NCBI GenBank assembly: GCA_965205865.1
Contig: CBDBHR010000029.1
Span: 704,001 to 768,000 of the forward strand
Reading direction: 5' to 3'
Source: a bacterium
Lineage (GTDB): Bacteria > SAR324 > NAC60-12
Length of the DNA stretch: 64,000 nt
In this document: positions 13,336 to 48,938 of the stretch, one piece after another
Layout: each line of letters begins with the position of its first letter
Numbering within the stretch: the stretch's first letter is position 1
The notes under the pieces: generated by a model
What the model was told of the DNA's origin: nothing
What the model saw: the letters and a program-made list of their open reading frames with translations, nothing else
Database searches by the model: none
Made by a program: the position numbers and the translations under genes

Positions 13336-14107
13336 GGGGTCAGGCCTTTGATTATTTGATTAGCAACGAGTCTAGTTTTTTTGCTCCCTTTTCATTTAAT
13401 CAAAGTCACCGTAAAGAACTGACTTATAGTGGTTTCCAGCCACCTTTCGTCATTCCTCCGGTACAGATCCGGACGTGCGCTGCTAACGTATCCGGCTCCT
13501 GCTTCGAGTCAGACGCTCAAACGTTGCCGTTTGGCGCACCCTGCTTAAACCGCTCTCTGATTTTACCGGCCTCTGAGTTCCGAACACAGGAGGGCAAGCA
13601 GAATTCCTCTCAGCCAAGTCCCTTTGCTCCACAGGCTCCGTTGATTTCCTTTGCAATATTACTCTCTACAAATGATCTCATTGTTCGCCGCTTCATCGCT
13701 ACTACGAACTTGTCCGACTTCCTGAAGACGTAGATATCGGGGTTATTTATTAATTTTCCCGATCCGACTACCAATGGAATGTTGACAGTCATCCTCAGGA
13801 TCTCCCAGGTTCCGGTCAAGAAACTTCCACACATGCACCGGGTCTTTGACTCCGCCAGGCTCAGCCGGGACTCACGCTAAGGCCTTCGGTTGATGTTGCC
13901 TTCCCCACCAGATCACAAGGTCAGCGCCTGAGACTATGATTTCGGAGCTCAATACCGAGCCTGTGTTCTCCCCTGTCAACGCTTAGCGCCTATCCTTGCG
14001 AATAACCACTCATGACTCGGGGACTCGGCGGGTCGTTACTGCCTTACCGAGTAAGAGACTTTCACTCTCTATTTCTTGCCAGCTTTCCTGGCGCACAGCC
14101 TGACCCC
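13336..14107. mobile_element. Non-autonomous 80-bp REPIN-like element with a group II intron in its right arm
   Basis: Left arm GGGGTCAGGCCTTTGATT; removing 13405-14096 restores right arm AATCAAAAGCCTGACCCC. Confidence 0.8.
13405..14096 (-). mobile_element. Group II intron copy A (class E-like), ORF-less, 692 nt
   Basis: 5' GTGCG, domain V GAGCCGGA..GTCCGGATC, 3' ..GGTGAC; equals 28458-30414 minus a 1265-bp deletion. Confidence 0.92.
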
Positions 14108-14401
14108 CTTTTGACCCCCTTTCTGATGCGGGAAGCGCTCCGGCAGGACCTTATCTGCACGGTCTGGACCACGGGACTGCGGGATCGTTTGATTCCCGAT
14201 TGACAACACATGCTAAAATTACTATTAAAGTCAAACACCTTGCTTCGTTTTGTATCTTTTTTTTCCATCTCGATTGCATCCATATCGGCCCTATACCCTA
14301 TTGCGAGGATGACACTGAAGGCGAATCACCTTTTGATTGTCATGATATCCTGTGATAGAAAATGTGGACTCTTTATTTCGAAATAGCGAAAAATTCTTTA
14401 T

Positions 14402-15619
14402 GTGAAAGTGGAAATCATGAAAGCAGAATTTCAAGGAATGGTAAAAGACCCAGGGAAATATCCGCCATTGACAGAAGTGCGTAAGAATTTTCGCCCCAAC
14501 TGGTACAGACCCCGCCTTGATTCTAAAAAATTTCGAGAGCTCAGTCAGCGCAGTGATCTACAAGCCTGTTTTCAGACATTGGGTCATCTGGGTTTGTGGA
14601 TGGTTACCGGGCTGCTCTCATTCTTCTTTTTTAAGCAAGAGCTTTGGATCGGTTTTGGCGTTGCTCTCTTTCTGCATGGCACCGTTGGTACCTTTTTTCA
14701 GGGTGCTGCCGTACACGAGTTAGGGCATGGCACGGTTTTTCGCACTCGCAGGCTCAATGTTTTTTTCAACAAAATCTTCAGCACCCTCGGATGGATCAAC
14801 ATCTATGACTTCAAAATGAGCCATACCTACCACCACCTCTATACCCTGCATCCTGTGGGAGATCGCGAAGTGGTTTTGCCGCTGAATCCAAAAATGAGCT
14901 TCCTCGACTTCATTCAGATCTTCACTTTCAATTTTACCAGCACCTTTGAAGCCTTCGGTCTCGTCCCTCGAGTTGATTATTTCATCCAAACGGCGCTCAA
15001 CCGCATTCCTCAAGGTAAGTCCGTGGGTGCGGGAGAAGAAGAAGGGAATTGGCTGCAGGCGCTATACGAAGGTGAACCGGAAAAGCGCAGCAAAGCGGTT
15101 CATTGGGCTCGAATAGTGCTTGGATTTCATGCCCTTGTCATTCTTTTTTCAGTGACCATCGGGGAGCCCATCCTCATCCTTCTCATTTCGGGGAGTGCAT
15201 TTACGGCAAACTGGCTGAGAAGCTTCGTCGGTGGTGTGATGCACACCGGATTGATGCAAAATGTTCCCGACATCCGCCTGAGCACTCGGAGTAATACCTT
15301 GGATCCCATTTCCGAATTTCTCTATTGGCATATGAACTGGCACATCGAACACCATATGTATCCAGGGGTTCCCTGTTACAATTTGAAAAAATTGCATGAA
15401 GCCACTAAAGAAGACATGCCCCAACCCCGCACTTTGATAGGCGCGTGGCGAGAAGCGCATGAAATTTGGCGGAAGCAACAGGAAGACCCTGCCTATGAGT
15501 TTGAGACCACTTTGCCAGCGACGGCTCATCACGCAGTGACCCGCACCAGCCAAGCAAAAGAGGTAGATGCCTTGGAATCCGAGTGGGTGAGTAAAATTGC
15601 ACCGCAGGGATTTCAGTAA
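14402..15619 (+). CDS. Membrane fatty acid desaturase/hydroxylase family protein
   Basis: Three His boxes HELGH, HTYHH, HIEHH; TM segments. Confidence 0.9.
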   Translation: MKVEIMKAEFQGMVKDPGKYPPLTEVRKNFRPNWYRPRLDSKKFRELSQRSDLQACFQTLGHLGLWMVTGLLSFFFFKQELWIGFGVALFLHGTVGTFFQGAAVHELGHGTVFRTRRLNVFFNKIFSTLGWINIYDFKMSHTYHHLYTLHPVGDREVVLPLNPKMSFLDFIQIFTFNFTSTFEAFGLVPRVDYFIQTALNRIPQGKSVGAGEEEGNWLQALYEGEPEKRSKAVHWARIVLGFHALVILFSVTIGEPILILLISGSAFTANWLRSFVGGVMHTGLMQNVPDIRLSTRSNTLDPISEFLYWHMNWHIEHHMYPGVPCYNLKKLHEATKEDMPQPRTLIGAWREAHEIWRKQQEDPAYEFETTLPATAHHAVTRTSQAKEVDALESEWVSKIAPQGFQ

Positions 15620-15794
15620 GATTTCAAAGTGGATGAAGATGATCAGTGACCCAGACTGAATCAAATTTGTCTTGAATCGCTTCCAACGTATTCACAATTT
15701 GATCGATGAAATTGTGGCTATCATCAACGTTCGGTCCTGCTTAGGGATGGATCACCCAAGCAAATTTCAAACCAGGCATCTTCCAATTACTTTT

Positions 15795-16625
15795 TTATAA
15801 ATTAACAGGATCCGGACAGATTCGAAAGCCTTGATCCAGTCCATTCAGAATCTCCATCTGTGGCGGACTCAGGTTGAAATCAAACACATCCGCATTTTCT
15901 TCAATACGTTGAGGACGAACCGACTTGGGAATCACTGTCTGACCACGTTGCAAGGCCCAGCGGATCATTACCTGGGCAGCTGATTTTTTTGTTTCCTCCG
16001 CAATGCGACGGAGGCCGGGTTCATTGAAACGATGACCCCGGGCCAACGGACAGTAACCGGTGAGGTGAATATTTTCTTGATGACAGAAGGAGACGATGGT
16101 TTGCTGTTGCAGGAAAGGATTGAGTTCGATTTGATTAACGACGGGTCGTACATTTCCCTTCTCCAGCAACTCACTCAAGTGTTTCGGAGCAAAATTGCTG
16201 ACGCCAATCGAACGACTGCGGCCTTCCTGCCGGATGCGTTCCAAGGCGCGCCACGTTTGCAAATTGGATCCCCTTGATGGCCAATGAATCAAGAAAAGAT
16301 CCACTAATTCCAATCTCATCTTCTTCAAGCTGTTGTCGAATGCCCTCAGAGCCGCATCGTAATCGTGTTCTGAATTCGACAGTTTGGACGTGAGAAACAC
16401 CTCTTCTCTCTTGAGACCGGAGGCGCGGAAGGCATCTCCAACGTCTTTCTCATTGCCATACATCTGTGCCGTATCGACATGCCGATATCCAGTCTTAAAT
16501 GCGCACAAAGTGGCCTGGAATGTCTCTCTTCCGGATCGGACATCCCAGACACCAAGTCCCAGCAAGGGCATACGATGACCGTCCTGAAGCGTGATATGGC
16601 TACGGATGTGCAGGGATTGATTCAT
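15795..16625 (-). CDS. Aldo/keto reductase
   Basis: GYRHVDTAQMYGNE, LIHWP, IGVSNF, VIPKS. Confidence 0.95.
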   Translation of the reverse strand: MNQSLHIRSHITLQDGHRMPLLGLGVWDVRSGRETFQATLCAFKTGYRHVDTAQMYGNEKDVGDAFRASGLKREEVFLTSKLSNSEHDYDAALRAFDNSLKKMRLELVDLFLIHWPSRGSNLQTWRALERIRQEGRSRSIGVSNFAPKHLSELLEKGNVRPVVNQIELNPFLQQQTIVSFCHQENIHLTGYCPLARGHRFNEPGLRRIAEETKKSAAQVMIRWALQRGQTVIPKSVRPQRIEENADVFDFNLSPPQMEILNGLDQGFRICPDPVNL

Positions 16626-16812
16626 TTTTGATCTCCACTTTTATTTTGCGCTCTTCTCACACTAGATTTTATAGAAATATAACCGATTTGAAAATTAATC
16701 AATAAGAGATAAACAACATACCGTGTTTTTCTGTTGCAAGCATGATTACTTTTCTAAATTGTTCGTTACTTCAAATTTTTCAGGAGTTCTCCATCGTCTC
16801 GACTATAAACTA

Positions 16813-17631
16813 TCAATGAAACTCAATGCCTCCATCTACGTTTATTGCCTGACCAGTGACGTTTTCAGCAGTGGCCAGGTAAACGGCTAGTTGGCCAATG
16901 TCCTCAGGGGTTTGGGGACGACCCAAGGGGGGCTTCGTTTGGATACGTTGCCAGGCTTGCTCTTTTGACTCGTTACCCTCCCTATATCCTTCAGATAAAT
17001 ATTCAAACATTTGAGTACCGATGATCCCTGGACAAATCGCGTTGACACGAATGCCAGCAGGAGCCAGTTCCTTTGCCAGGGCATTGGTGAAACCCACCAC
17101 AGCGAACTTCGAAGCGCAGTAGTGAGCTTGTTTTGGAACCCCCATTTTCCCTGCAATCGAGGCGATGTTGATAATACATCCTCCGTTTTGGGCTTTCATG
17201 ACGGGAATTGCCGCCTGACACGAGAGGAAGACCCCTTTCGTATTGACAGCAAAGGTGAGATCCCATGCCTCTTCACTCAATGCTTCGACGAGTGAAAGAC
17301 TGATCACTCCCGCATTGCATACGAGGATATGCAGATGACCGAGTTGCCGCATGGTCTCTTCAACCATAAGCTTTGTATCCTCTTTCTTAGTGACATCCGC
17401 ATGCAATGCAATTGCGCGTCGGCCCAGGGCAACAATGTCGCTCACAGTCGTTTGGGCAGCCGTCAAACCCCCAAGTGCTGCAGTACCATATTGTTGTACC
17501 GTACTTGATAGCTTCTCAACATCGGCGAGGGCGATATCAACACCGGCCTCCGCCAGCGCGATTGCGATTCCCCGCCCAATTCCTCGTGCCCCTCCCGTTA
17601 CCAAGGCTACTTTTCCTTCAAGGGATAACAT
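16813..17631 (-). CDS. Short-chain dehydrogenase/reductase
   Basis: TGGARGIG, NAG, YCASK, VNAICPG. Confidence 0.95.
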   Translation of the reverse strand: MLSLEGKVALVTGGARGIGRGIAIALAEAGVDIALADVEKLSSTVQQYGTAALGGLTAAQTTVSDIVALGRRAIALHADVTKKEDTKLMVEETMRQLGHLHILVCNAGVISLSLVEALSEEAWDLTFAVNTKGVFLSCQAAIPVMKAQNGGCIINIASIAGKMGVPKQAHYCASKFAVVGFTNALAKELAPAGIRVNAICPGIIGTQMFEYLSEGYREGNESKEQAWQRIQTKPPLGRPQTPEDIGQLAVYLATAENVTGQAINVDGGIEFH

Positions 17632-18035
17632 ATCTCTTTCCTTTCTGCTCGAAGACCCGAGCCATATAATGTAAATTAAAAAACTCCATTAAATACATCA
17701 TCGAGTAAATTTTTATCAAATTTTTTTAAGATTATGAAGCAATAATAGTGTTAGAATAGGACAATGATCAATATAGTATCTCATAACTGCGCAGATGATC
17801 TCATTTCCCTTGCCGGTGCCTACCTGGAGTTGAATGAGAGTATTTGAAGCAAGAAAAGTCACAGAAATTTTAACTGCCTCGACCTTCACGCGGCCTGGCC
17901 TTCGGCTATCACTCGACTAGTTCGAGTATTGTAAAGCAGAAAACATTTTAGTTCATTTTTCTTCGCGGATTGACAGTTATGTATATTCCGACTTTATTCA
18001 GGGAAACGCGCCCGGAAATTTTGAAACCCTTAAAT

Positions 18036-19083
18036 GGGGTCAGGCTTGAAAGTTTGAAACTTCAAGCAAGTATTTGACGTTTCAGTTCCTCTAATTGATT
18101 TTGGAGACCCTCGGATTCCTTCAATCGTTGTCTCAACCGGTGCACTCCAAAGCTAATCGTAGAATCGTCTCGATTGCAAACTTTTCCGACCTTCCGAATC
18201 GTTGCGGACTTCCAATCGAAAGCTAACATGCCAATCATCGCACGGGCTTCACTCAACTTTCGTGACTGCACGGCACTTCTTAATTCCTTCTCCTGCAGTT
18301 GATAAACTTGAGCCACTTGATGAATGATCCGTTCTAAAAGAGGAGGAGAGCAGGGGATGTTTTCGAGCTTCTTCAAAACCGAGGTCACAAAATGATCTTC
18401 TCCAATGATCTCTGAATGGGCAGAGCCTTTTTGAAAATTGACCGGCGAAGCAATGTTTCTCCCACTCCGGATATAATCCTCATAAAGTTTTCTGGCCTCT
18501 CCCCGTTTTGGGGAAAAGTGAGACAATCCCCAATCCGTATGCAACCATTCCAGCCGCCGCTTTCCCAAGTAAGCCAAATGGCTGCACCATGGGAAATCAA
18601 CCAACTCTTTGGCCACACCCGCTCGAATCGGATTGAGATGAATATAACGAATCAAGGCTAACAAATAGTTTTCTTGATCAACTATCAAGGCTTTATAACG
18701 TCCCTGAAATAAGTGGCCCATGCGTTTTTGCCGTTGATTGATCCAACGCGTGTAGCGAAATGAGATATTTTGCATGATCGGAGCAAGAGGGATCGCTCCC
18801 ACTTCAATGGCTAAATGGACATGATTGCTCATTAAACAAAAAGCGTGAATCCGATGATCAAAGCGTTGGTAACCTTCTTGGAGTAAGTGATAAAATTGTC
18901 GATAGTCGGGGGAACTGAAAAAAATGGGTTGCCCTCCATTGCCACGAAGCATCACATGATAAAGCGCACCAGGATAGTAAAGGCGTAGCTTACGGGCCAT
19001 CTTTAGAAACAAGCGAGAAGGAAAGTAAAATCGATTTAAAGAAAAAAATAACACTACTTTTCCAAACTTTCAAGCCTGACCCC
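18036..19083 (-). mobile_element. HUH/RAYT-type element copy 1 (1048 bp, 21-bp terminal inverted repeats)
   Basis: GGGGTCAGGCTTGAAAGTTTG ... CAAACTTTCAAGCCTGACCCC; five near-identical copies in the window. Confidence 0.92.
18062..19000 (-). CDS. Y1 HUH transposase (RAYT/TnpA-REP-like) with C-terminal DnaA-C-like HTH
   Basis: MARKLRL..YHVMLRGN, HUH motif NHVHL, GHLFQGRY, YIHLNP; C-terminal EARAMI..NRDDSTI. Confidence 0.92.
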   Translation of the reverse strand: MARKLRLYYPGALYHVMLRGNGGQPIFFSSPDYRQFYHLLQEGYQRFDHRIHAFCLMSNHVHLAIEVGAIPLAPIMQNISFRYTRWINQRQKRMGHLFQGRYKALIVDQENYLLALIRYIHLNPIRAGVAKELVDFPWCSHLAYLGKRRLEWLHTDWGLSHFSPKRGEARKLYEDYIRSGRNIASPVNFQKGSAHSEIIGEDHFVTSVLKKLENIPCSPPLLERIIHQVAQVYQLQEKELRSAVQSRKLSEARAMIGMLAFDWKSATIRKVGKVCNRDDSTISFGVHRLRQRLKESEGLQNQLEELKRQILA

Positions 19084-19515
19084 CTTTATAACTGTTATTG
19101 TAATCCTTTCTGAGATCACTGGGGGAGAATGTGGTAAATGCAGATAATCTCCCAGAACAAGCTGTAGGGTATGCTGACCCAGTTCGAGATCAATCTCTAC
19201 TTCTGTCTGTCCCAACCCGAAATGTACAATCTGATTAGTGGCTGGAAGAGATTGATCAAATGATGGCATATCACCTTCAGCCACATCGATGAGAACATGG
19301 TGATGCCCTGTATTGGGAAACTGTATGCCAGCTGGAGCAATTCCCAGCCCCTTCAGTCCAAATCGTATGGTCACTGGTGAGGTGACAACTGCCCCATCCT
19401 CAGGCGACTGGATATAGACCCTTGCATCATCTGGGGCTGGTGACCTCTCCAGTGCTTCGGCAAGTGCAATGGGAACAAAAAGAAGAAGAATCGTGATCCA
19501 TAGTATCGTTCTCAT
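19054..19515 (-). CDS. DUF4399-like exported protein; C-terminus runs into the element terminus
   Basis: Signal peptide, TGHHHVLID, HFGLGQTE, HTLQLVLGD; last residues GVRLESLEK are encoded by the inverted repeat. Confidence 0.85.
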   Translation of the reverse strand: MRTILWITILLLFVPIALAEALERSPAPDDARVYIQSPEDGAVVTSPVTIRFGLKGLGIAPAGIQFPNTGHHHVLIDVAEGDMPSFDQSLPATNQIVHFGLGQTEVEIDLELGQHTLQLVLGDYLHLPHSPPVISERITITVIKGVRLESLEK

Positions 19516-19745
19516 GGTGGTCCTTTCATATTGAATTGAATAACTCAAATATCTCATCACTCATTTTTACCTGGTTTAGATCAGGATTTAGAAAAGGTAA
19601 GCAAACCCCGAGAAAGAAGCAACGCGAAAGTTCGACCGGAGGCAAGAAGGGGGCCCAGGGTGTCATATCCTCAGGCCCCTTTTTTATTAGAGCGACTCAC
19701 AATGGCTATCGAATCATTCCGTTATGATCTTCACGAATGATTGCG

Positions 19746-20231
19746 CTAATCCCTGTCTTCACTACCATGAGACTCTCCGGAGCTTTCAGAGCCTTCAGAA
19801 CCTTCGCCACCTCCATGTCCTGTTTCTGTTCCTGTTTCCGGGTGAGCAGTCCATGTGTCAAAAGTTCCTACAGCAGCAAGTTGCACAGGTATCTTTTGTC
19901 CTGGACGAAGATCAGTTCTGGAAGTTGGTCCTAATTCAATCCCATTTGATTGATGCACTTCAACACGAACGTCATAGAGCGTTGTTGTTAAGGTATTTTC
20001 CACGGTACCTTCAAAGGCATTGATCTGGCTGTTATAAACTATGATCAACCTCATGCCATTGACAACATGGTCATACTTTTGACTCAGAGTATATCTTCCT
20101 GTCTGTTCGGCAGCATCACCTCCTTGACCTTCACCACCCGTTTCTGAAACACGTTCTCCTTGAGCACATGCGTTTAATACCAATAATGATCCTAGTAACG
20201 AGATCATTAGTACTTTAAAAACATTTTTCAT
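19746..20231 (-). CDS. Putative lipoprotein/exported protein
   Basis: Signal peptide with LNAC lipobox-like motif; Gly/Glu/Ser-rich tail. Confidence 0.7.
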   Translation of the reverse strand: MKNVFKVLMISLLGSLLVLNACAQGERVSETGGEGQGGDAAEQTGRYTLSQKYDHVVNGMRLIIVYNSQINAFEGTVENTLTTTLYDVRVEVHQSNGIELGPTSRTDLRPGQKIPVQLAAVGTFDTWTAHPETGTETGHGGGEGSEGSESSGESHGSEDRD

Positions 20232-20548
20232 AATTTCCTCATTTCAATCAGGATTGATAAACAGGACGTCGACCTTCGACATCCACTGAGGCAAGTATAA
20301 GCAATCCAATGTTTTTTGAGGGTCAACGGAGTGTAAAACTTTTGTAAATTAATTCGATCTGCATCCATCATCAATTTTTGACGGAAGCAATTGCGGAGGG
20401 ATCCGGCAACGTTGGGGTAGCCATCCTAGTCAAACTGTTTGAAATTATCTGAAAGCACCAGGCATGGATTCTCTCCACGGCCTGCCGATTCAATTAGAAA
20501 AAGGATTTTCCAAGTATTAAATGGGGTCAGGCTTGAAATTTTGAAACT

Positions 20549-21487
20549 TCAAGCAAGTATTTGACGTTTCAGTTCCTCTAATTGATTTTGGAGACCCTCG
20601 GATTCCTTCAATCGTTGTCTCAACCGGTGCACTCCAAAGCTAATCGTAGAATCGTCTCGATTGCAAACTTTTCCGACCTTCCGAATCGTTGCGGACTTCC
20701 AATCGAAAGCTAACATGCCAATCATCGCACGGGCTTCACTCAACTTTCGTGACTGCCCGGCACTTCTTAATTCCTTCTCCTGCAGTTGATTAACTTGAGC
20801 CACTTGATGAATGATCCGTTCTAAAAGAGGAGGAGAGCAGGGGATGTTTTCGAGCTTCTTCAAAACCGAGGTCACAAAATGATCTTCTCCAATGATCTCT
20901 GAATGGGCAGAGCCTTTTTGAAAATTGACCGGCGAAGCAATGTTTCTCCCACTCCGGATATAATCCTCATAAAGTTTTCTGGCCTCTCCCCGTTTTGGGG
21001 AAAAGTGAGACAATCCCCAATCCGTATGCAACCATTCCAGCCGCCGCTTTCCCAAGTAAGCCAAATGGCTGCACCATGGGAAATCAACCAACTCTTTGGC
21101 CACGCCCGCTCGAATCGGATTGAGATGAATATAACGAATCAAGGCTAACAAATAGTTTTCTTGATCAACTAACAAGGCTTTATAACGTCCCTGAAATAAG
21201 TGGCCCATGCGTTTTTGCCGTTGATTGATCCAACGCGTGTAGCGAAATGAGATATTTTGCATGATCGGAGCAAGAGGGATCGCTCCCACTTCAATGGCTA
21301 AATGGACATGATTGCTCATTAAACAAAAAGCGTGAATCCGATGATCAAAGCGTTGGTAACCTTCTTGGAGTAAGTGATAAAATTGTCGATAGTCGGGGGA
21401 ACTGAAAAAAATGGGTTGCCCTCCATTGCCACGAAGCATCACATGATAAAGCGCACCAGGATAGTAAAGGCGTGGTTTACGGGCCAT
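20549..21487 (-). CDS. Y1 HUH transposase (RAYT-like), copy 2
   Basis: Near-identical to copy 1. Confidence 0.92.
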   Translation of the reverse strand: MARKPRLYYPGALYHVMLRGNGGQPIFFSSPDYRQFYHLLQEGYQRFDHRIHAFCLMSNHVHLAIEVGAIPLAPIMQNISFRYTRWINQRQKRMGHLFQGRYKALLVDQENYLLALIRYIHLNPIRAGVAKELVDFPWCSHLAYLGKRRLEWLHTDWGLSHFSPKRGEARKLYEDYIRSGRNIASPVNFQKGSAHSEIIGEDHFVTSVLKKLENIPCSPPLLERIIHQVAQVNQLQEKELRSAGQSRKLSEARAMIGMLAFDWKSATIRKVGKVCNRDDSTISFGVHRLRQRLKESEGLQNQLEELKRQILA

Positions 21488-21559
21488 CTTTAGAAACAAG
21501 CGAGAAGGAAAGTAAAATCGATTTAAAGAAAAAAATAACACTACTTTTCCAAACTTTCA

Positions 21560-22248
21560 GTCACCGTAAAGAACTGACTTATAGTGGTTTCCAGCCACCT
21601 TTCGTCATTCCTCCGGTACAGATCCGGACGTGCGCTGCTAACGCATCCGGCTCCTGCTTCGAGTCAGACGCTCAAACGTTGCCGTTTGGCGCACCCTGCT
21701 TAAACCGCTCTCTGATTTTACGGCCTCTGAGTTCCGAACACAGGAGGGCAAGCAGAATTCCTCTCAGCCAAGTCCCTTTGCTCCACAGGCTCCGTTGATT
21801 TCCTTTGCATTGTTACTCTCTGCAAATGATCTCATTGTTCGCCGCTTCATCGCTACTACGAACTTGTCCGACTTCCTGAAGACGTAGATATCGGGGTTAT
21901 TTATTAATTTTCCCGATCCGACTACCAATAGAATGTTGACAGTCGTCTTCAGGATCTCCCAGGTTCCGATCAAGAAACTTCCACACATGCACCGGGTCTT
22001 TGACTCCGCCAGGCTGCCGAGACTCACGCTAACGCCTTCGGTTGATATTGCCTTCCCCACCAGACCACAAGGTCAGCGCCTGAAACTATGATTTCGGAGC
22101 TCAATACCGAGCCTATGTTCTCCCCTGTCAACGCTTAGCGCCTATCCTTGCGAATAACCACTCATGACTCGGGGACTCGGCGGGTCGTTACTGCCTTACC
22201 GAGTAAGAGACTTTCACTCTCTATTTCTTGCCAGCTTTCCTGGCGCAC
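21560..22248 (-). mobile_element. Group II intron copy B (class E-like), ORF-less, 689 nt
   Basis: GTGCG...GTGAC termini; same deletion junction (CAAACGTTG|CCGTTTGGCGC) as copy A. Confidence 0.92.
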
Positions 22249-22426
22249 AGCCTGACCCCCTTTTTTCCGCTCCAGCGGCTCAGATTCAGCATACTCACAC
22301 GGCCCCGACAACACATCATCACGGTAGTGATCATAGAAAGCTGCTTGATCAATGAACTTGAGATTATTGGCTGAAGACAACATAAATAGGGGAGCAGTTC
22401 GAACATAAAAATCGTTGATTCAAAGG

Positions 22427-22852
22427 ATGGCAAACATGCAAAAAACCACTAAAAACAAGAAAACGCTTTCAAAGCAACTTAGAGAAGAGGTGACTCAACT
22501 CATTAAAAAATTTAATCATGAAGAAATTAATTCATCACAATGCTATTATGTCCCTCGTTACCGGGGACCATTTGTATACTTAGATCGATTTGCTTACGGG
22601 CAACAAGAACCCGTAGCTCGCATCAAATATACTGGAAATTGGGACGATTGGGAATTTGCGATATTTAAATGGAGCAGCGAAACGTATGATACTGAGGAGT
22701 TCTTCTTTCCAGGGGCTGAATGCCTGGATGGATCTATCAAAGGGGCTTTGAAAGCAGGAATGCGGGCTTATCCTATCACGGACAAGAGCAATCCAGAAGG
22801 TCTCTTTGCTGAACTGGGACAGTTTCTCAATAGCTTATTACCCAAACGATAG
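22427..22852 (+). CDS. Hypothetical protein
   Basis: Protein-like ORF (ARIKYTG..WEFAIFKWSSETY); function not recognised; start uncertain. Confidence 0.7.
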   Translation: MANMQKTTKNKKTLSKQLREEVTQLIKKFNHEEINSSQCYYVPRYRGPFVYLDRFAYGQQEPVARIKYTGNWDDWEFAIFKWSSETYDTEEFFFPGAECLDGSIKGALKAGMRAYPITDKSNPEGLFAELGQFLNSLLPKR

Positions 22853-22885
22853 CGAAGAGAACTACCAAAAGTGGCGAAGGTATTT

Positions 22886-23092
22886 TATTAGAATACGTGT
22901 TGTAATAACATTTTCATCAATATGTTGGATTACCAGGTGAATACAAAAGCCCACACCAGGCTGGTCGAATAATCGGGACACCACCCCATTGATGTGGATG
23001 CTGTCGCAATTGCCCAGTTTACCGACAAGGACGTCTTCCAAGAATATCTGTATATTTGGTGGCAATTAAGCAACGCTTGGATTTAGATTTTG
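22886..23092. repeat. ~205-bp dispersed repeat (probable IS remnant); direct copy at 59148-59355
   Basis: TATTAGAATACGTGTTG...GGATTTAGATTTTG near-identical at both loci. Confidence 0.8.
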
Positions 23093-23313
23093 ATGCGCAG
23101 GAAGTCAATACGGTCTGAAGAATACTCTACTGAAGATGAGGAGAAAAGAAAATGAATATAATAACACCCAGAATCGTTTTGAACGAACTTTGCCAATTAA
23201 AGTTGGCTTGTAAACCCGATGATCGTGAAGCCCCCAATATCATAAACAACGCGCGTCTGCGCGGGGATGGAACGATTGAATCCAAGTTTAGTAATGATCA
23301 GGAGATTGATTCC

Positions 23314-23859
23314 ATGATTCGTCTCACCAAAATTGTTCTTACAATGATTTGCCTTTTATCTTTTGCTCAGCCCTGTAATTCTCAAAGCTTGCAAGTTGTC
23401 GAGTCAACTTTCTGCATCGAGTTGGATGGTCCAGCCTGTATACGTCCTGTTGTTTCGGATTCGACCGAGGTTTCTCTATCAAATCTATATCAAGGCAAGA
23501 TTTATTTTTGGAGCTCGATTCAAACAAATATTAATAGGGATATTATGCATGTCTGGTCTGCTTCTAACCGCACTGATAAGTGGGCTGAACCTGTTCATGT
23601 ATCCTGGTCCGATCACGCCTGGAATTTAACGAACGAAATCATTGGGGTCGCAGAAAATTTTTTAAAGATTATTTACAACAGAGGGGAAACCCAGTTGCAC
23701 AGTGTTCAGGGTATAATTTTGGGTGTGAACAAGTCCCCGCGCTTCCGAACATATAGCAGTATCCAAGCAGCCCCAGGAACCTACAGCGTAGAAGTTCGAA
23801 ATATGAACAACCAAGTTGTGCAGGGTGGAGAGCCAAAAACTTTAACAATCAGTCACTAG
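23314..23859 (+). CDS. Putative exported hypothetical protein
   Basis: SD AGGAG before MIRLTK; signal-peptide-like N-terminus. Confidence 0.65.
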   Translation: MIRLTKIVLTMICLLSFAQPCNSQSLQVVESTFCIELDGPACIRPVVSDSTEVSLSNLYQGKIYFWSSIQTNINRDIMHVWSASNRTDKWAEPVHVSWSDHAWNLTNEIIGVAENFLKIIYNRGETQLHSVQGIILGVNKSPRFRTYSSIQAAPGTYSVEVRNMNNQVVQGGEPKTLTISH

Positions 23860-23948
23860 GTCGAAAACAGATTGGCGGTTGGATAGATGTCGGTGGAGAT
23901 CGCCACGATACTCGATACGAAGTGTTTATTGAAGAAAATTTGGTCCCA

Positions 23949-24022
23949 ATTAGGGATAGGGAGGGGTTTTTCTCCCCTCCCTCCCACACCACCTCGCATA
24001 TGGGTCCGTACCGGGCGATTCC
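23949..24022 (-). other. Degenerate group II intron 3' end (domains V-VI, class C-like)
   Basis: AATCGCCCGGTACGGACCCATATGCGAGGTGGTGTGGGAGG...CCCTCCCTATCCCTAAT resembles the IIC DV/DVI pattern. Confidence 0.6.
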
Positions 24023-24188
24023 CAAAGAGTGTCGGGTCGTAGCCGGACCAGATTTGCAACCACAAATCTGTACGTATATTCGTCCCACAGCGCACCTATT
24101 TTAATCATCTCCACCGGTCGGCTTCATCAATGTAGAGCCTATGGGATAGAGCGTTCTCTTGGGTTCGGGCCTCCACTCTCCAGGAGCT

Positions 24189-25062
24189 GTCGGGTCGGAG
24201 GAGGCGCGTTTCCGCTAGCCTCCGTCCGCCGCCCAAACCGGACATGCAGTTTTCCCGCATCCGGCTTTCACAGAGAAGTCCGTTTGCCGAAGGGACCAAT
24301 CGAAGGAATTAGTGAGATCAGATTTACTAATTTTCATCTTGTAAATCTTGTCCACTAAGGAGTGAACCTTCTTTGCTCCCGTTAGATTGATCCAGTCAGC
24401 CAGTCTCCTCGGGCCATGAGTTCTGGGTCTTTCACTTACCGAACTTTCCACCTCACTGTCCTTACTCATCTGACTTCCTTTCTCATTCCAACCTTCTCTG
24501 CCCATCGCCTTCCCCAGCTCACTCTGCTGCCGATCCCTCGGTCACGTAGCTCTCACTACGCTTCAGGTACTATTCGATGGTCCGACTACTCAACACGCTT
24601 CGGTTCCCATTTCGCTTTCGCTTATAGGGTCCCTTATCCTAGTGCCACCTAAGAACGCCCTGAGTCCTCCTGGGGTCACTCATGATTCTTCCTCACCGTG
24701 TCGTCCGCACACACCTTGGTATTGCAGGGGGGAATCCAACTGCTTTCGCCATCATAGTGCAAGCTCAACCATTCCCTGCTGTTGGCCGACCGGTTCGTCT
24801 CTGGAGTAGCCTCCTTGACTACGACCCGGTGATTCTCCGCAAACCCTTCAGATTCCACCTCACGGTGGACACCCTGTCCTCCGGAAGTTCACTTCGGTGC
24901 ATTTGGCCCTTTCGACCTCCCATTGTGCTTAAAGCGCCCGGGATGGCGCCCTGGTAAACATTCCGGCCAGCGAGGCATTACCCCCGCTTTTGGATATCAG
25001 CCTGGGATCTCAGGCTGAGTGGGACTTGAACCCACCTGAATCATGCGCTGCACAGTGCGCAC
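24189..25062 (-). mobile_element. Second group II intron type (class F-like), RT gene deleted, nested in intron C
   Basis: 5' GTGCG at 25062; DV GAAAGCCGGATGCGGGAAAACTGCATGTCCGGTTT; ends CCTCCGACCCGAC; IEP N-terminal stub KVHSLVDKIY. Confidence 0.8.
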
Positions 25063-25456
25063 TACGAACTTGTCCGAATTCCTGAAGACGTAGATATCGG
25101 GGTTATTTATTAATTTTCCCGATCCGACTACCAATGGAATGCTGACAGTCGTCTTCAGGATCTCCCAGGTTCCGGTCAAGAAACTTCCACACATGCACCG
25201 GATCTTCGACTCCGCCAGGCTCGACCGGGACTCACGCTAACGCCTTCGGTTGATGTTGCCTTCCCCACCAGACTACAAGGTCAGCACCTGAAACTATGAT
25301 TTCGGAGCTCAATACCGAGCCTATGTTCTCCCCTGTCAACGCTTAGCGCCTATCCTTACGGATAACCACCCATGACTCGGGGCCTCGGCGGGTCGTTACT
25401 GCCTTACCGAGTAAGAGACTTTCACTCTCTATTTCTTGCCAGCTTTCCTGGCGCAC
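25063..25456 (-). mobile_element. Group II intron copy C (class E-like), 5' portion only
   Basis: Matches the 5' ~394 nt of copies A/B/D; 5' exon GGGGTCAGGCT at 25457-25467. Confidence 0.88.
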
Positions 25457-25850
25457 AGCCTGACCCCCTTTTTGCAATAATCATCTAAAAAATCCGATTC
25501 TTGAAAAGAATCGCTCAATTTAGGTTATAATATCTCAAATTTCTATTTTATTATGGAACATCTACGATCTCCAGAGCATCTGGAAAACAAGAATTCAATT
25601 CCTCATGAAGTTTTTTACGAGCAACTTTTATGCAATCAAGAGATTCTAAAATGTCTTCAGGTTCTAATAAAACATCTGACGAACCTTGAGTCGAATGTCG
25701 GGCGTCTAAATTTTCCGGTTGATAATGAATTCAAAAGAAATACGGACTACATTGCTCTCAGGTTCCTTTGAAATGCTGTAAAATTTCAAAATAGTTTTTG
25801 TTTTCATTTCTTATTCGCTAGTGTCTATTTTATTTTTTGGCTTAGCTTCA

Positions 25851-26738
25851 GAACCTGTTTGAAAGTCATTTAATTCTCTTTAACATCAAGCAAATCATAG
25901 CGACATAGATCATGTTTTCAGAGTTTTTTGTTTTTCTTTCATAATCGATGTTGAGTCTTCGATACCATCCAAACCAGGAAAAGGTTCTTTCGACGATCCA
26001 CCTTTTCGGTAGGACCTGAAAGCCCGTTCCTTGGAGGTTTAGAGTGATCTCAAGTTCACATTGAAATCGATTCCATAACCATTGGGCTAATTCCCCTCGA
26101 TAACCTCCGTCGGCCCAAATCATCTGAATCGAAAAGAACCAGCTAAACATCGATTCCAAAAGATCGTAAGCACTTTTGGAATCGGAGGCATTGGCATCAG
26201 TGACTTTAACCATGAGAGGAATTCCCGAGATATCGACAGCTACATGCCTTTTATGCCCTTTGATTCGTTTATTTCCATCAAAACCTCGACTATCAGCCAG
26301 TTCCGTGGTTTTGACGGATTGACTATCAATCATTGCAGCACTGGGTTCGGGAGCTCTGCCCATTTCTATTCGGGTTTGCCGATGGAGAAACTGGTGAATC
26401 AGGAACCAAGTGTAGTTCTTGCGCCATTTATTGTAGTGGTAATAAACACTTTGCCAAGGAGGAAAATCTTTGGGAAGCATTCTCCATTGACAACCCGTGG
26501 TCACTACATACAAAATGGCGTTTATGATAACTCGTAGTTCCCATTTACGAAGGTGGGCTCCACGAGTTGAAAGTTCGGGAAGGTACTCTTGAAGTCTTTC
26601 CCATTGTTTATCACTGACATCACTGTTATAACCTGAACGTTCCATGTTCACTCCTTGTTATTAAGGTTTCATTTTTCTCAAAATGAATGTGACATGGAAC
26701 ACTTCCAATAGGAAGCTCAACTTATTTCAAACAGGTTC
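25851..26738 (-). mobile_element. IS5-family element (IS1031-like)
   Basis: TIR GAACCTGTTTGAAA, 3-bp TCA duplication; interrupts the 3' end of ORF 26717-27208. Confidence 0.88.
25866..26651 (-). CDS. IS5-family DDE transposase
   Basis: TGCQWRMLPKDFPPWQSVY, IDSQSVKT, WADGGY, RWIVERTFSW. Confidence 0.95.
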   Translation of the reverse strand: MNMERSGYNSDVSDKQWERLQEYLPELSTRGAHLRKWELRVIINAILYVVTTGCQWRMLPKDFPPWQSVYYHYNKWRKNYTWFLIHQFLHRQTRIEMGRAPEPSAAMIDSQSVKTTELADSRGFDGNKRIKGHKRHVAVDISGIPLMVKVTDANASDSKSAYDLLESMFSWFFSIQMIWADGGYRGELAQWLWNRFQCELEITLNLQGTGFQVLPKRWIVERTFSWFGWYRRLNIDYERKTKNSENMIYVAMICLMLKRIK

Positions 26739-27208
26739 TCAAGTTCTATAGGCTTTTTGCAATAAGGAATTTCTGTGATTCTGCAATTATCGGGGCAATA
26801 ATTCTCATCGTCATTTATATCATCATCACCCCAATTCAATTTGCAATCTGCCGGACAATAATATTTTCCCTTGTAATACCCTCCACTTGTGGGCATGCAA
26901 TATTCTGCCGTCAAATATGATTCCAAGTATTTTTGTAAATCTAAATATGCTTCTTTGTTTAATTCCATTATATTTGAATAATTCTCTAATTCTAATTTAT
27001 ATAATTTTTCCTCATATACCTCTAATTGAGTGGTTTCAAAATTTTTCAAATCTTCCTCGGCATTTGGCCCATATGCTGAAATCATCGCTGAAACAGTCAG
27101 CTTTATAATTTCAGAAATTAAGAATTTTTCTATTTCCTGAGATAAAGCAACAGGACTCGTTGCCAAAATAATTCCTCCAGACAAACAAATTATTATCCAT
27201 TTTTTCAT
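26717..27208 (-). CDS. Exported Cys-containing hypothetical protein, C-terminus altered by IS5
   Basis: Signal peptide; removing the IS restores ...PIELEAKPKNKIDTSE* ending near 25812. Confidence 0.7.
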   Translation of the reverse strand: MKKWIIICLSGGIILATSPVALSQEIEKFLISEIIKLTVSAMISAYGPNAEEDLKNFETTQLEVYEEKLYKLELENYSNIMELNKEAYLDLQKYLESYLTAEYCMPTSGGYYKGKYYCPADCKLNWGDDDINDDENYCPDNCRITEIPYCKKPIELENLFEIS

Positions 27209-27446
27209 TTAATTTCCCTTTCAATTTGATTCCTATTTTTTCGGTATCATACCGGCAATTTTATCCAAATTCTTGTTTATTTCTTGCAATTCCCGATATT
27301 TGGCAATCTCAATTGCCATTGGGAACGCGGTTATGATAATTAACATAATCTGTATATTTAGTTCTCAAATGCACAGAAATTTCGTGAACCATTTTTACTG
27401 CGAATTCATTATCTTTATTTAGGGTCAGGCTTGAAAGTTTGAAACT

Positions 27447-28385
27447 TCAAGCAAGTATTTGACGTTTCAGTTCCTCTAATTGATTTTGGAGACCCTCGGA
27501 TTCCTTCAATCGTTGTCTCAACCGGTGCACTCCAAAGCTAATCGTAGAATCGTCTCGATTGCAAACTTTTCCGACCTCCCGAATCGTTGCGGACTTCCAA
27601 TCGAAAGCTAACATGCCAATCATCGCACGGGCTTCACTCAACTTTCGTGACTGCACGGCACTTCTTAATTCCTTCTCCTCCAGTTGATAAACTTGAGCCA
27701 CTTGATGAATGATCCGTTCTAAAAGAGGAGGAGAACAAGGGATGTTTTCGAGCTTCTTCAAAACCGAGGTCACAAAATGATCTTCTCCAATGATCTCTGA
27801 ATGGGCAGAGCCTTTTTGAAAATTGACCGGCGAAGCAATGTTTCTCCCACTCCGGATATAATCCTCATAAAGTTTTCTGGCCTCTCCCCGTTTTGGGGAA
27901 AAGTGAGACAATCCCCAATCCGTATGCAACCATTCCAGCCGCCGCTTTCCCAAGTAAGCCAAATGGCTGCACCATGGGAAATCAACCAACTCTTTGGCCA
28001 CACCCGCTCGAATCGGATTGAGATGAATATAACGAATCAAGGCTAACAAATAGTTTTCTTGATCAACTAACAAGGCTTTATAACGTCCCTGAAATAAGTG
28101 GCCCATGCGTTTTTGCCGTTGATTGATCCAACGCGTGTAGCGAAATGAGATATTTTGCATGATCGGAGCAAGAGGGATCGCTCCCACTTCAATGGCTAAA
28201 TGGACATGATTGCTCATTAAACAAAAAGCGTTAATCCGATGATCAAAGCGTTGGTAACCTTCTTGGAGTAAGTGATAAAATTGTCGATAGTCGGGGGAAC
28301 TGAAAAAAATGGGTTGCCCTCCATTGCCACGAAGCATCACATGATAAAGCGCACCAGGATAGTAAAGGCGTGGTTTACGGGCCAT
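27447..28385 (-). CDS. Y1 HUH transposase (RAYT-like), copy 3
   Basis: Near-identical to copy 1. Confidence 0.92.
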   Translation of the reverse strand: MARKPRLYYPGALYHVMLRGNGGQPIFFSSPDYRQFYHLLQEGYQRFDHRINAFCLMSNHVHLAIEVGAIPLAPIMQNISFRYTRWINQRQKRMGHLFQGRYKALLVDQENYLLALIRYIHLNPIRAGVAKELVDFPWCSHLAYLGKRRLEWLHTDWGLSHFSPKRGEARKLYEDYIRSGRNIASPVNFQKGSAHSEIIGEDHFVTSVLKKLENIPCSPPLLERIIHQVAQVYQLEEKELRSAVQSRKLSEARAMIGMLAFDWKSATIREVGKVCNRDDSTISFGVHRLRQRLKESEGLQNQLEELKRQILA

Positions 28386-28457
28386 CTTTAGAAACAAGCG
28401 AGAAGGAAAGTAAAATCGATTTAAAGAAAAAAATAACACTACTTTTCCAAACTTTCA

Positions 28458-30414
28458 GTCACCGTAAAGAACTGACTTATAGTGGTTTCCAGCCACCTTT
28501 CGTCATTCCTCCGGTACAAATCCGGACGTGCGCTGCTAACGCATCCGGCTCCTGCTTCGAGTCAGACGCTCAAACGTTGATTCGGATACGGGTGGGTTGT
28601 CCTTACAGAAGGAATGTGTAGTTTGACCAGTACTTTGAAGCGTTCCCAGTTCATCCTCTTTGCTTTGTGACTCCTCCGTCTTAGTGATTTGAACCACGTC
28701 CGATGGATTTCCCTGCGAAAAGCATTCAAGGAACTCCGGTTGCCGGGGACTCCATAGTAGTTGTACAGACCGTTTAAAACAGACCTGAGCCATTTTCCTT
28801 GTTCATGCGCATTTTCATGACGTTTGCGTTTCGCTTCAAGTTTGATCTCTTTGAGCTTCTTTCGCAACCTTTTGGAAATGGTGAGACGGGTGAGCTTGAA
28901 TTTTCCATCCTTTATCCGAGTGTCACAGACATGAGTGAATCCTGAAAAGTCGAAACTTTCCGGTTTTCCCAGACCTTGTTTTTCCCGGTTATCGGCGGCA
29001 AATCGCCCGAACTCGATGAGGCGTGTTTTCTCTTCATGTAAAGTCAGTCCAAATTGAGAGAGGCGTTCTCTTAGTTGGCGATTAAATTTCTGGCCATCTT
29101 CAGAATATTGAAAACCCACGACAAAATCATCCGCATAGCGAATGATGTAAACTTCCCCCCGAGCTTCCCGCCTTCTCCATTGATTAACCCATAGATCTAA
29201 AACATAGTGCAGGTAGATATTTGAATAGATTGGAGACACTACCGAACCTTGTGGTGTTCCGACCACCGTTTCAGACCACTTCCCCTCTTCGATGACTCCG
29301 GCGCGCAACGTTTTCTCTGCTAAACGCAGAATCCTTTTGTCGGAGATTCGATGCTCGATAAATTTCAGCATCCAATCATGCTGAATTGTGTCGAAAAATC
29401 CTTGAATATCCGCATCTAAGATGTAGCTCACTTTCCGTTGGGTAATGGCCACATACAAAGCGTCTAAGGCTTGATGTTGGCTTCGTCCGGGTCGGAACCC
29501 GTAACTAAACCCAAGGAAATCCTCCTCATAGATCGATTCCAACGTCCAAACAAGGGCTTGTTGTACGATCTTGTCTTCAAGTGCGGCTATTCCGATTGGC
29601 CTTTGACGGCCATCCGGTTTAGGAACCCACACTCGCAGAGAAGGGTGAGGACGATAACGTTCTTGGTGGATCCTCCCGTGCAGATCGTTAATCCGCTCCA
29701 GGAGATTTATGCCATACTCATTCCAGGTCTCCTCGTCCACTCCCGCCGCTGAGTTGCGATTGAGATCAAAGTAAGCTCTCCGCAGTAAGTCAGGGTTGAT
29801 GTGATGAAAGAGATTGTTGAATTGAAGATGGGGGTTCCTCTTCGCCCTTTGGCGCACCCTGCTTAAACCGCTCTCTGATTTTACCGGCCTCTGAGTTCCG
29901 AACACAGGAGGGCAAGCAGAATTCCTCTCAGCCAAGTCCCTTTGCTCCACAGGCTCCGTTGATTTCCTTTGCATTGTTACTCTCTGCAAATGATCTCATT
30001 GTTCGCCGCTTCATCGCTACTACGAACTTGTCCGACTTCCTGAAGACGTAGATATCGGGGTTATTTATTAATTTTCCCGATCCGACTACCAATAGAATGT
30101 TGACAGTCGTCTTCAGGATCTCCCAGGTTCCGATCAAGAAACTTCCACACATGCACCGGGTCTTTGACTCCACCAGGCTCAGCCGAGACTCACGCTAACG
30201 CCTTCGGTTGATATTGCCTTCCCCACCAGACCACAAGGTCAGCGCCTGAAACTATGATTTCGGAGCTCAATACCGAGCCTATGTTCTCCCCTGTCAACGC
30301 TTAGCGCCTATCCTTGCGAATAACCACTCATGACTCGGGGACTCGGCGGGTCGTTACTGCCTTACCGAGTAAGAGACTTTCACTCTCTATTTCTTGCCAG
30401 CTTTCCTGGCGCAC
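28458..30414 (-). mobile_element. Group II intron copy D, full length (class E-like)
   Basis: GTGCG start, DV/DVI, AC end, intact IEP. Confidence 0.95.
28562..29989 (-). CDS. ltrA: Group II intron reverse transcriptase/maturase, no endonuclease domain
   Basis: PKPDGRQRPIGI, FSYGFRPGRS, GTPQG, RYADDF; X/thumb domain ending HPYPNQRL; no HNH domain. Confidence 0.95.
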   Translation of the reverse strand: MQRVTMQRKSTEPVEQRDLAERNSACPPVFGTQRPVKSESGLSRVRQRAKRNPHLQFNNLFHHINPDLLRRAYFDLNRNSAAGVDEETWNEYGINLLERINDLHGRIHQERYRPHPSLRVWVPKPDGRQRPIGIAALEDKIVQQALVWTLESIYEEDFLGFSYGFRPGRSQHQALDALYVAITQRKVSYILDADIQGFFDTIQHDWMLKFIEHRISDKRILRLAEKTLRAGVIEEGKWSETVVGTPQGSVVSPIYSNIYLHYVLDLWVNQWRRREARGEVYIIRYADDFVVGFQYSEDGQKFNRQLRERLSQFGLTLHEEKTRLIEFGRFAADNREKQGLGKPESFDFSGFTHVCDTRIKDGKFKLTRLTISKRLRKKLKEIKLEAKRKRHENAHEQGKWLRSVLNGLYNYYGVPGNRSSLNAFRREIHRTWFKSLRRRSHKAKRMNWERFKVLVKLHIPSVRTTHPYPNQRLSV

Positions 30415-30527
30415 AGCCTGACCCCCTTTATTTTCTTGCCGAAGGATAGAATTTGTAGGATGCTATAGTGGCAGTATTGAAATAAAAGAAGAAAAAGCGG
30501 CTGTTGGTCTTTGCTGGAGGGAAGATG

Positions 30528-32579: not shown

Positions 32580-32584
32580 TAAAT

Positions 32585-48913: not shown

Positions 48914-48938
48914 TTTGCAAACTTGCAAGCCTGACCCC
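48914..48938 (-). repeat. Orphan divergent RAYT-element terminus
   Basis: Reverse complement reads GGGGTCAGGCTTGCAAGTTTGCAAA. Confidence 0.8.

Follow-up and report, generated by a model that had tools for sequence, protein, structure and literature searches.

Intron copies and their host elements

The window considered here is a stretch of 64,000 nt from the genome of a SAR324 bacterium (GTDB lineage Bacteria; SAR324; NAC60-12; GenBank assembly GCA_965205865.1, contig CBDBHR010000029.1, forward-strand positions 704,001 to 768,000, i.e., C29:704001-768000 of the analyzed genome, G000), and coordinates without a contig label refer to the whole of it. It harbors a group II intron in four copies, all in minus-strand orientation, and each begins directly after the same 11-mer, GGGGTCAGGCT, as a first-pass annotation made from the letters alone had claimed. 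We consider it likely that they belong to an IIE/IIF-like intron family without an endonuclease domain that retrohomes into TIRtrons, i.e., transposons with a Y1/HUH transposase gene of the TIRYT type, and into gene-less miniatures, at the outer tip of their terminal inverted repeats (TIRs).

Four minus-strand matches to Rfam RF02005 (group II D1-D4; 13840-14062, 21994-22214, 25200-25422, and 30158-30380; 155.8-165.2 bits, gathering 49) mark copies A to D, whose boundaries were set by comparison with empty elements and by direct reading of the sequence. The 11-mer, with at most one mismatch, occurs 14 times in the window vs. 0.66 expected. Intron D (28458..30414, minus strand; RF02005 164 bits at 30158-30380) is full-length, 1957 nt from 5′ GUGCG to GGUGAC 3′, and its 5′ exon (30415..30425, minus strand) is GGGGTCAGGCT, the outer 11-mer of a TIRtron end, which contains the intron-binding site 1 (IBS1). 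The TIRtron that it interrupts (27421..30425, minus strand; 1048 bp without the intron) carries a Y1 transposase open reading frame (ORF) at 27447-28439 (Pfam Y1_Tnp 51.9 bits, Bac_DnaA_C 33.2 bits). Intron B (21560..22248, minus strand; delimited by RF02005 and empty elements) is a 689-nt ORF-less form within another copy of the same transposon (20523..22259, minus strand; Y1 ORF 20549-21541), recognized by comparison with the empty copies. Self-comparison revealed three such empty copies, also on the minus strand, at 18036..19083 (the 1048-bp reference, ORF 18062-19054), 32585..33632, and 40954..42001. Taking out D from 27421-30425 or B from 20523-22259 leaves 1048 bp in each case, colinear at 99% identity with the three empty copies, which bears out the restoration of the element noticed earlier. 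Both introns sit at the end upstream of, and are co-oriented with, the 330-aa Y1_Tnp ORF, and the five downstream ends of the window are all unoccupied, again as first described.

The other two copies fit that first description only in part: they do follow GGGGTCAGGCT, but neither is a simple insertion in the 1048-bp element. Intron A (13405..14096, minus strand; RF02005 and self-comparison) is a 692-nt ORF-less form that splits a gene-less inverted-repeat element of 80 bp (13336..14107, i.e., 13336-13404 plus 14097-14107, no strand assigned), of which eight intact copies occur elsewhere by a strict pattern. A and B are one and the same internal-deletion form, in which intron nt 1-571 are joined to nt 1836-1957. 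Copy C (25057..25467, minus strand; RF02005 165.2 bits, 95.7% identity to D over 415 nt) comprises only the 5′ exon GGGGTCAGGCT (25457-25467) and nt 1-400 of the outer intron. A different group II intron of ~870 nt without an ORF (24186..25056, minus strand; RF00029 43.5 bits at 24189-24269) is fused to it as an inner intron, nested at outer nt ~400, in domain IV. The D5/D6 match at 24189-24269 belongs to this inner intron, the 3′ part of the outer one being absent, and the same inner intron sits within complete outer introns at C28:326218-327823 and C30:653968-655382. A 238-bp repeat, of which at least four other contigs carry copies (94% identity), directly adjoins the inner intron of the window at about 23950-24188. 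The window also holds an unoccupied end of another repeat family, GGGGTCAGGCT followed by TGCAAGTTTGC, at 48928..48938 (minus strand).

The 330-aa host ORFs match Y1_Tnp (51.9-53.6 bits, cut-off 23) and Bac_DnaA_C (32.6-33.2 bits, cut-off 31.5), display the HUH motif as HVH, and score 70.8 bits with NF047646 REP_Tyr_transpos, below its cut-off of 80. The 1048-bp element has a TIR of ~21 bp, GGGGTCAGGCTTGAAAGTTTG, with no REP hairpins, and no target duplication was seen in the flanks of the host elements. More Y1 paralogues (33-70% identity, tblastn) each lie between ends starting with the same 11-mer. TIRtrons, or TIRYT elements, have TIRs with GGGGWSAS in common (Di Nocera et al. 2013, PMC3733652) and have been equated with TnpA-Y1 subclass 2.1, in which subgroup 2.1.2 has a Bac_DnaA_C-like domain (Quentin et al. 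2018, PMC6006769); GGGGTCAG agrees with the published consensus. By these sequence features, the host elements are TIRtrons, i.e., Y1/HUH TIRYT genes with a DnaA-C-like helix-turn-helix (HTH), together with gene-less miniatures. Immediately inward of the 11-mer (19062-19072 and other ends), every family carries two 8-nt direct repeats of its own, e.g., TGAAAGTT/TGGAAAAG, TGCAAGTT/TGCAAAAA, TCGTTATT/TCGTTAAT, and TTTGATTA/TTTGATTA, to which the DnaA-C-like HTH domain may bind.

All five TIRtron copies point the same way and fall within 24 kb (18036-42001). As they are 99% identical, while a low copy number and diverged paralogues are reported for class 2 TnpA-Y1 genes (PMC6006769), the 1048-bp family looks recently active. 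An ORF for an IS4-type DDE transposase (DDE_Tnp_1_4, 146 bits; 31429-32598, plus strand) extends 14 nt into the left end of the copy at 32585, and this copy may therefore have landed in an IS4-type insertion sequence (IS).

Recognition of the insertion site

Intron D was aligned with 23 related introns fetched via their proteins, and every run of five intron columns was scored for complementarity to the exon words. The columns at D nt 183-188 pair with exon positions -6 to -1 in 16/22 and 17/21 related introns, over 10-13 different exon words, and no other place in the intron exceeds 5/22. By this covariation scan, exon-binding site 1 (EBS1) is GGUCUGG at nt 183-189 (30226..30232, minus strand), which pairs with the last 6-7 bases of the 5′ exon, UCAGGCY, the final position being Y because the 5′ G of EBS1 pairs with U or C. 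Intron and exon change together in the relatives (UGUCUG/CAGGCA, UGGGUG/CACCCA, CGCCUG/CAGGCG, and AGAGCG/CGCUCU), EBS1 is AGCCUG in a genome of the same genus, and a same-family genome has UGGCUG/CAGCCA, with exons ending in AAGGACAGCCA. Within G000, the variant AGUCUGG is present in 10 copies, seven of them at T sites. The loop AGCGUGA (30190-30196), at first proposed as EBS1, does exist but covaries with the exon in only 3/22 introns vs. 16/22 for nt 183-188, which rules it out for this role. When the first ~360 intron nt were scanned against exon -5 to -16 for an EBS2, nothing besides EBS1 emerged (best 5/22 for -7 to -16).

Occupancy across the whole genome depends on the context of the paired bases. 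CAGGCY preceded by GGGGT is occupied at 23/138 sites, CAGGCY with four of the five GGGGT bases matching at 8/110, and CAGGCY in any other context at 4/4219, though 1009 of the latter have a T at +1. As such random CAGGCY sites with a following T are almost never used, the protein (reading GGGGW) or the repeat context appears to add specificity beyond IBS1. A family of 11 repeats that match UCAGGCC perfectly yet continue with a G at +1 is never occupied, and we infer that the +1 T matters for site choice. Other multi-copy repeats with near-variant starts are likewise never occupied (about 11 sites, e.g., C3:88713 and C29:361324), namely GGGTTCAGGCC before GCTTTTTTGTAGGG, GGGGTCAAGCC before GGAATGGATGC, GGGGTCGGGCT before GCGACCAGC, and GGGGCCAGGCC before CAAGGGAGC.

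Ribozyme and intron-encoded protein

The reverse transcriptase/maturase encoded by intron D (28562..29974, minus strand) matches RVT_1 (Pfam, 126 bits) and TIGR04416 (340 bits, cut-off 300, residues 68-439 of 475). It is listed as 475 aa from a TTG at 29989, but since the TTG frame is interrupted by a stop at its second codon in two other full copies, the ATG at 29974, giving 470 aa, is the likely start; the ORF is otherwise open in all four full-length copies. With only 36 residues beyond the TIGR04416 match, the protein lacks an endonuclease domain, in agreement with the initial description of the intron as endonuclease-less.

The ribozyme without the ORF measures 529 nt (1957 minus the 1428-nt ORF), inside the 450-700 nt that, along with a protein without an endonuclease domain, is given for classes IIE/IIF (PMC3753933, PMC3552965). 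Its ends, GUGCG...GGUGAC, match the group II pattern 5′ GUGYG...AY 3′. Domain V can be read in the sequence, even though the intron's own D5/D6 match to RF00029 (28.8 bits at 28458-28553) falls below the gathering value of 40 because domain VI is long. At the tip of domain V, GCGUUAGCAGCGC can be read with UAGCA as its loop or with a loop of 3 nt if a U-A pair closes it, and cmscan aligns three loop bases vs. four in the consensus; a 5-nt domain V loop instead of a tetraloop is an IIE/IIF trait (PMC3753933). So is a separate hairpin (in DId3) tipped by alpha′ (PMC3753933), and in intron D a separate hairpin follows the EBS1 hairpin. Here, CGUUA (nt 215-219; 30196-30200) can pair with UAACG (nt 59-63), with at least four of five pairs kept in 9/15 distinct sequence pairs of relatives, and the loop at 30190-30200 (minus strand) may be alpha′. 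EBS2 was dispensable for splicing in published work on IIE/IIF introns (PMC3753933). By its RNA traits, the intron fits an IIE/IIF-like assignment.

Could the intron instead recognize a folded DNA hairpin, as class C (IIC) introns do at terminators and attC sites, with the inverted repeats supplying the stem-loop? In favor of such a habit, its protein is devoid of an endonuclease domain and finds its closest match among solved structures in the Eubacterium rectale IIC reverse transcriptase (150.9 bits vs. 133.8 for a IIB one), no EBS2 was found, and many targets are palindromic 80-bp elements. However, the insertion lies within the 5′ arm, 11 nt from the hairpin base and not after a stem-loop, and the ends of 1-kb elements, whose partner is 1 kb away, are used too. 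The 6-7 nt of EBS1 that covary with the exon also argue against hairpin recognition, as do the domain V loop and the separate hairpin, which would fit IIE/IIF traits (PMC3753933). Hence, we hold hairpin recognition to be very improbable.

Spread through the genome

A BLAST search with intron D against the genome returned 92 segments, which were merged into 50 loci: four full-length introns, 16 of the ~693-nt ORF-less form, three twintrons, six other forms with both ends, 12 5′ fragments, seven 3′ fragments, and two internal pieces. Exon words were counted by hand. The 41 5′ ends follow an exact GGGGTCAGGCY in 23 cases, one with at most one mismatch in 31, and one with at most two mismatches in 37, while the base after the 36 3′ ends is T in 30, C in five, and G in one. 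Dedication to the 1048-bp element, as the first-pass annotation had it, does not hold, given that the 31/41 5′ exons within one mismatch of GGGGTCAGGCY are spread over at least 12 families, gene-less miniatures included. That element itself has five copies, all in the window, and its other genomic counterparts are diverged paralogues of 72-78% identity. The 3′ exons represent at least 12 repeat families having only the outer 11-mer in common, e.g., TTTGATTA (80-bp element, both orientations), TGCAAGTTTGC, TGCATAYTKGTATT, TCGTTA, TGYGACTTTGGG, and TGAAAGTTTGG of the window. The four intact reverse transcriptase copies probably mobilize the 693-nt ORF-less form in trans.

Two arrangements among these loci stand somewhat apart. 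At C26:239010-240179, two introns are joined head to tail, the 3′ GGUGAC of one being followed directly by the GUGCG of the next (one of the 41 5′ ends). At four loci (C28:263292, C29:628220, C30:788630, and C30:1206297), a second, unrelated ORF-less intron-like insert of ~905 nt sits near outer nt ~404.

The insertions are independent, because the 5′ flanks are unique except for one shared pair (C28:358767 and C29:409363, likely a duplication), the 3′ exons belong to at least 12 families, and the EBS1 subtypes GGUCUGG and AGUCUGG are each present in several of these. Duplication of a single ancestral insertion, a check named at the outset, is contradicted by the same differing flanks and 3′ exons. 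A related account would make the intron a passenger, with one or a few old insertions spread as DNA when inverted-repeat elements were mobilized by the Y1 transposase or duplicated. Six copies each lie in the same 80-bp element family and orientation, and three copies in a genome of the same genus have a common 5′ flank (a segmental duplication), both as expected of a passenger. But the same 693-nt form is spread over at least 12 inner-repeat families unrelated to one another and occupies the 80-bp element at either end, its boundaries are always exact splice sites, the EBS1 subtype differs among copies within one family, one of which has a nested intron, and EBS1 covaries with the exon across genomes. 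Passive spread of this kind is, in our opinion, highly unlikely.

Relatives in other genomes

The same habit recurs in other phyla. Among the 27 related introns with a readable 5′ exon, 11 sit after GGGGW-type words, e.g., GGGACAGGCA, GGACACCCA, GGGGGACAGGCG, and GGGGACGCUCU. Relatives after GGGGW-type ends with matching EBS1 changes come from Gammaproteobacteria, two sister genomes, and three metagenome-assembled genomes, one of Planctomycetaceae and two deltaproteobacterial. In L006, L014, and L015 (locus numbers with L denote the relatives), the exon word recurs in inverted form 40-930 nt past the intron, and the intron of L028 occupies a miniature from the same family as in the window. By protein, L028 and L001 are the closest relatives, but their introns are 5′-truncated and thus give no 5′ exon.

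Y1-type genes accompany several of these introns, beginning 70-200 nt downstream in L009 and L015 and present as remnants in L001 and L032. The downstream protein of L009 matched no Pfam family at E 0.01; it scores 37.3 bits with NF047646 (below cut-off) and 2e-7 in BLASTP against the window's transposase. The Y1-type gene of L015 has the HUH motif HYH. In the same-genus genome (G001), an ORF-less intron lies upstream of a homologous Y1 gene, and three copies there have one 5′ flank in common, which marks them as a segmental duplication. The introns of L001, L009, L015, L032, and G001 are all upstream of, and co-oriented with, the Y1-type genes. In a rough FastTree topology of 24 proteins, 7/8 GGGGW-type or Y1-adjacent introns group in a single clade that also includes L002 (exon unreadable), with the Planctomycetaceae intron L006 outside it.

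Some relatives without GGGGW-type words (L012, L013, L016-L021, and L023) have other exon words in common, e.g., UUCAC ~12-16 nt upstream, along with perfect 6-7-bp EBS1 pairings, and may have a second conserved target. In the Endozoicomonas locus L003:3234-4364, an open ORF downstream of a related intron matches Pfam Toxin_15 (ShET2 enterotoxin N-terminal region) at 52.5 bits.

Proposed mechanism of insertion

We propose that the intron RNA reads its site by pairing of EBS1 GGUCUGG with the last 6-7 exon bases, UCAGGCY, a pairing shown by the covariation. The insertion point lies between GGGGTCAGGCY, which contains GGGGWSAS, and the T that opens the family-specific subterminal repeats. The GGGGW stretch would be read by the protein, or the repeat context recognized, in addition to IBS1. 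As the protein has no endonuclease domain, the intron would reverse splice into DNA and its cDNA would be primed by nascent strands at replication forks. The 693-nt ORF-less form would be moved in trans by the four intact protein-coding copies.

Several observations weigh against this proposal or parts of it. A replication-strand bias is expected for group II introns without an endonuclease, but it is not demonstrable in this genome, where the GC skew, itself weak, agrees with intron orientation at 28/45 loci (p 0.14) and long-ORF orientation at 24/45, and where 7/11 copies on the dnaA contig agree. In the same-genus genome, two copies fit such a bias (the three same-flank duplicates counted as one) and four do not. 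With no EBS2 found, the RNA pairing that is seen (6-7 bp plus +1) cannot alone account for the specificity. Single mismatches at -11 to -7 (GGGGT) leave occupancy unreduced (8/38 vs. 24/127 for exact repeat ends), although these numbers are small, and mismatches at -6 to -1 (IBS1) reduce it weakly (1/17), with numbers too small for a test. Among solved structures, the protein is most similar to the IIC enzyme mentioned above, and the class E/F call comes from RNA traits only. Lastly, the contigs of four runs (two RNA libraries; contigs only) contain the intron and no exon-exon joint. Their sole recurrent joint is a deletion of the ORF (28578 to 29844) that is present in DNA runs too, and none skips the whole intron, bearing in mind that spliced exons would look like empty elements in RNA contigs.

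Preference for one transposon end

The upstream-end bias is real but not absolute. In elements with a recognizable Y1 gene, introns occupy 6/12 upstream ends and 0/12 downstream ends, though in the family found in the window both ends have the same sequence from -11 to +10. The rule that downstream ends stay free holds for the five empty ones of the window, but not genome-wide: of the ~368-bp miniatures, one is occupied at an upstream-type end (C30:799285) and one at a downstream-type end (C30:270824).

Such a bias raises the question of whether the intron is a hyperparasite, i.e., whether its insertion between the GGGGWSAS tip and the subterminal repeats disables or regulates the transposon end, and whether the intron exploits single-stranded DNA from the Y1 transposase or the same lagging-strand template, hence its preference for the transposase-proximal end. 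The insertion is always 11 nt inside the end, the 6/12 vs. 0/12 contrast arises at ends with the same sequence around the site, relatives at five other places (L001, L009, L015, L032, and G001) are likewise upstream of and co-oriented with Y1-type genes, and all seven related copies in two complete gammaproteobacterial chromosomes point with fork movement, assuming a terminus opposite dnaA. Yet most occupied sites are gene-less repeats, a miniature is occupied at the downstream-type end, the orientation bias may simply reflect one strand used by both elements, and no replication bias is demonstrable in this genome. We regard this scenario as quite unlikely. A bolder form of it would see a clade of IIE/IIF-like introns specialized across phyla on the GGGGWSAS catalytic-end motif, retuning EBS1 per host, as a true hyperparasite that enters the lagging-strand single-stranded DNA of the transposase, prefers the transposase-proximal end, and disables or gates host transposition; this we think unlikely, albeit conceivable. 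Retrohoming into the TIRtron tip guided by EBS1 remains our preferred explanation, and it is this intron that we compare below with known systems.

Comparison with known systems and significance

The first-pass annotation considered the pairing of intron and transposon repeat undescribed, but pairing with the inverted repeats of an IS has already been published: the intron RmInt2 of Sinorhizobium meliloti GR4 lies in those of ISRm17 (PMC4615759). RmInt2/ISRm17 is the closest precedent: the intron also has no endonuclease domain, its natural copies are all in IS inverted repeats, each element offers it two potential sites, one per strand, and its specificity is relaxed. However, RmInt2 is a class D intron with a defined EBS2, and ISRm17 is one IS family in one species, whereas the present intron has an IIE/IIF-like RNA with no EBS2 detected, uses a tip motif common to many Y1/HUH TIRtron families and miniatures, recurs in this habit across phyla with EBS1 covariation, and is ORF-less in most copies. 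What is new here is the target class, i.e., TIRtron tips.

The host elements resemble the published TIRtrons/TIRYT (subclass 2.1.2) in their RAYT-like Y1 gene, their Bac_DnaA_C-like C-terminus, TIRs with GGGG[AT][CG]A[CG], and derived repeat families (PMC3733652, PMC6006769), but five 99% identical copies in 24 kb differ from the low copy number described for class 2 genes (PMC6006769). The term “group II intron” does not occur in the available main text of either PMC3733652 or PMC6006769; the former does not mention introns at all, and the latter has the word twice, in one case for intron homing. Our searches of open-access main texts brought up neither a description of this target nor any report of group II introns at RAYT, TIRYT, or REPIN ends. 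An association with repetitive extragenic palindromic (REP) sequences has been noted for a Pseudomonas putida intron (2/9; PMC1525189). Class C introns also have no endonuclease domain and use repeated palindromic non-coding motifs as abundant safe sites, but they insert after a stem-loop and have an IBS1 of 3-4 nt (PMC4424553, PMC1702495), unlike the present intron, which inserts inside the repeat arm with a covarying IBS1 of 6-7 nt. IStrons similarly tie a self-splicing (group I) intron physically to a Y1-transposase (IS200/IS605-type) element, but as a single chimera that transposes as DNA and is spliced out in its entirety (PMC4227781), whereas the present intron would move alone, by retrohoming into a transposon end.

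Proliferation with ORF-less forms has parallels as well. The preferred reading, in which intact copies would mobilize the 693-nt form in trans, recalls TeI3/TeI4 of Thermosynechococcus elongatus, close introns that Mohr and colleagues reportedly described in 2010 as having proliferated, with ORF-less derivatives mobilized in trans and twintrons. Those are said to have spread to varied sites via EBS changes, in contrast to the present intron, which keeps to one transposon-end motif.

A review from 2015 gives homing sites, terminators, and attC sites as the target specificities of bacterial group II introns and considers ORF-less introns rare in bacteria (PMC4424553). The present family adds a target class to these specificities, the conserved tip of HUH/Y1 (single-strand) transposons and of their miniatures, and offers a natural EBS1/IBS1 covariation series across phyla as well as a bacterial genome where ORF-less introns outnumber autonomous ones. 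It also suggests a rule for annotation, as an RF02005 match directly after a GGGGWSAS-type word would mark a TIRtron end. If insertion of the intron affects TIRtron ends, it would in addition provide a handle on how TIRYT transposases recognize them.

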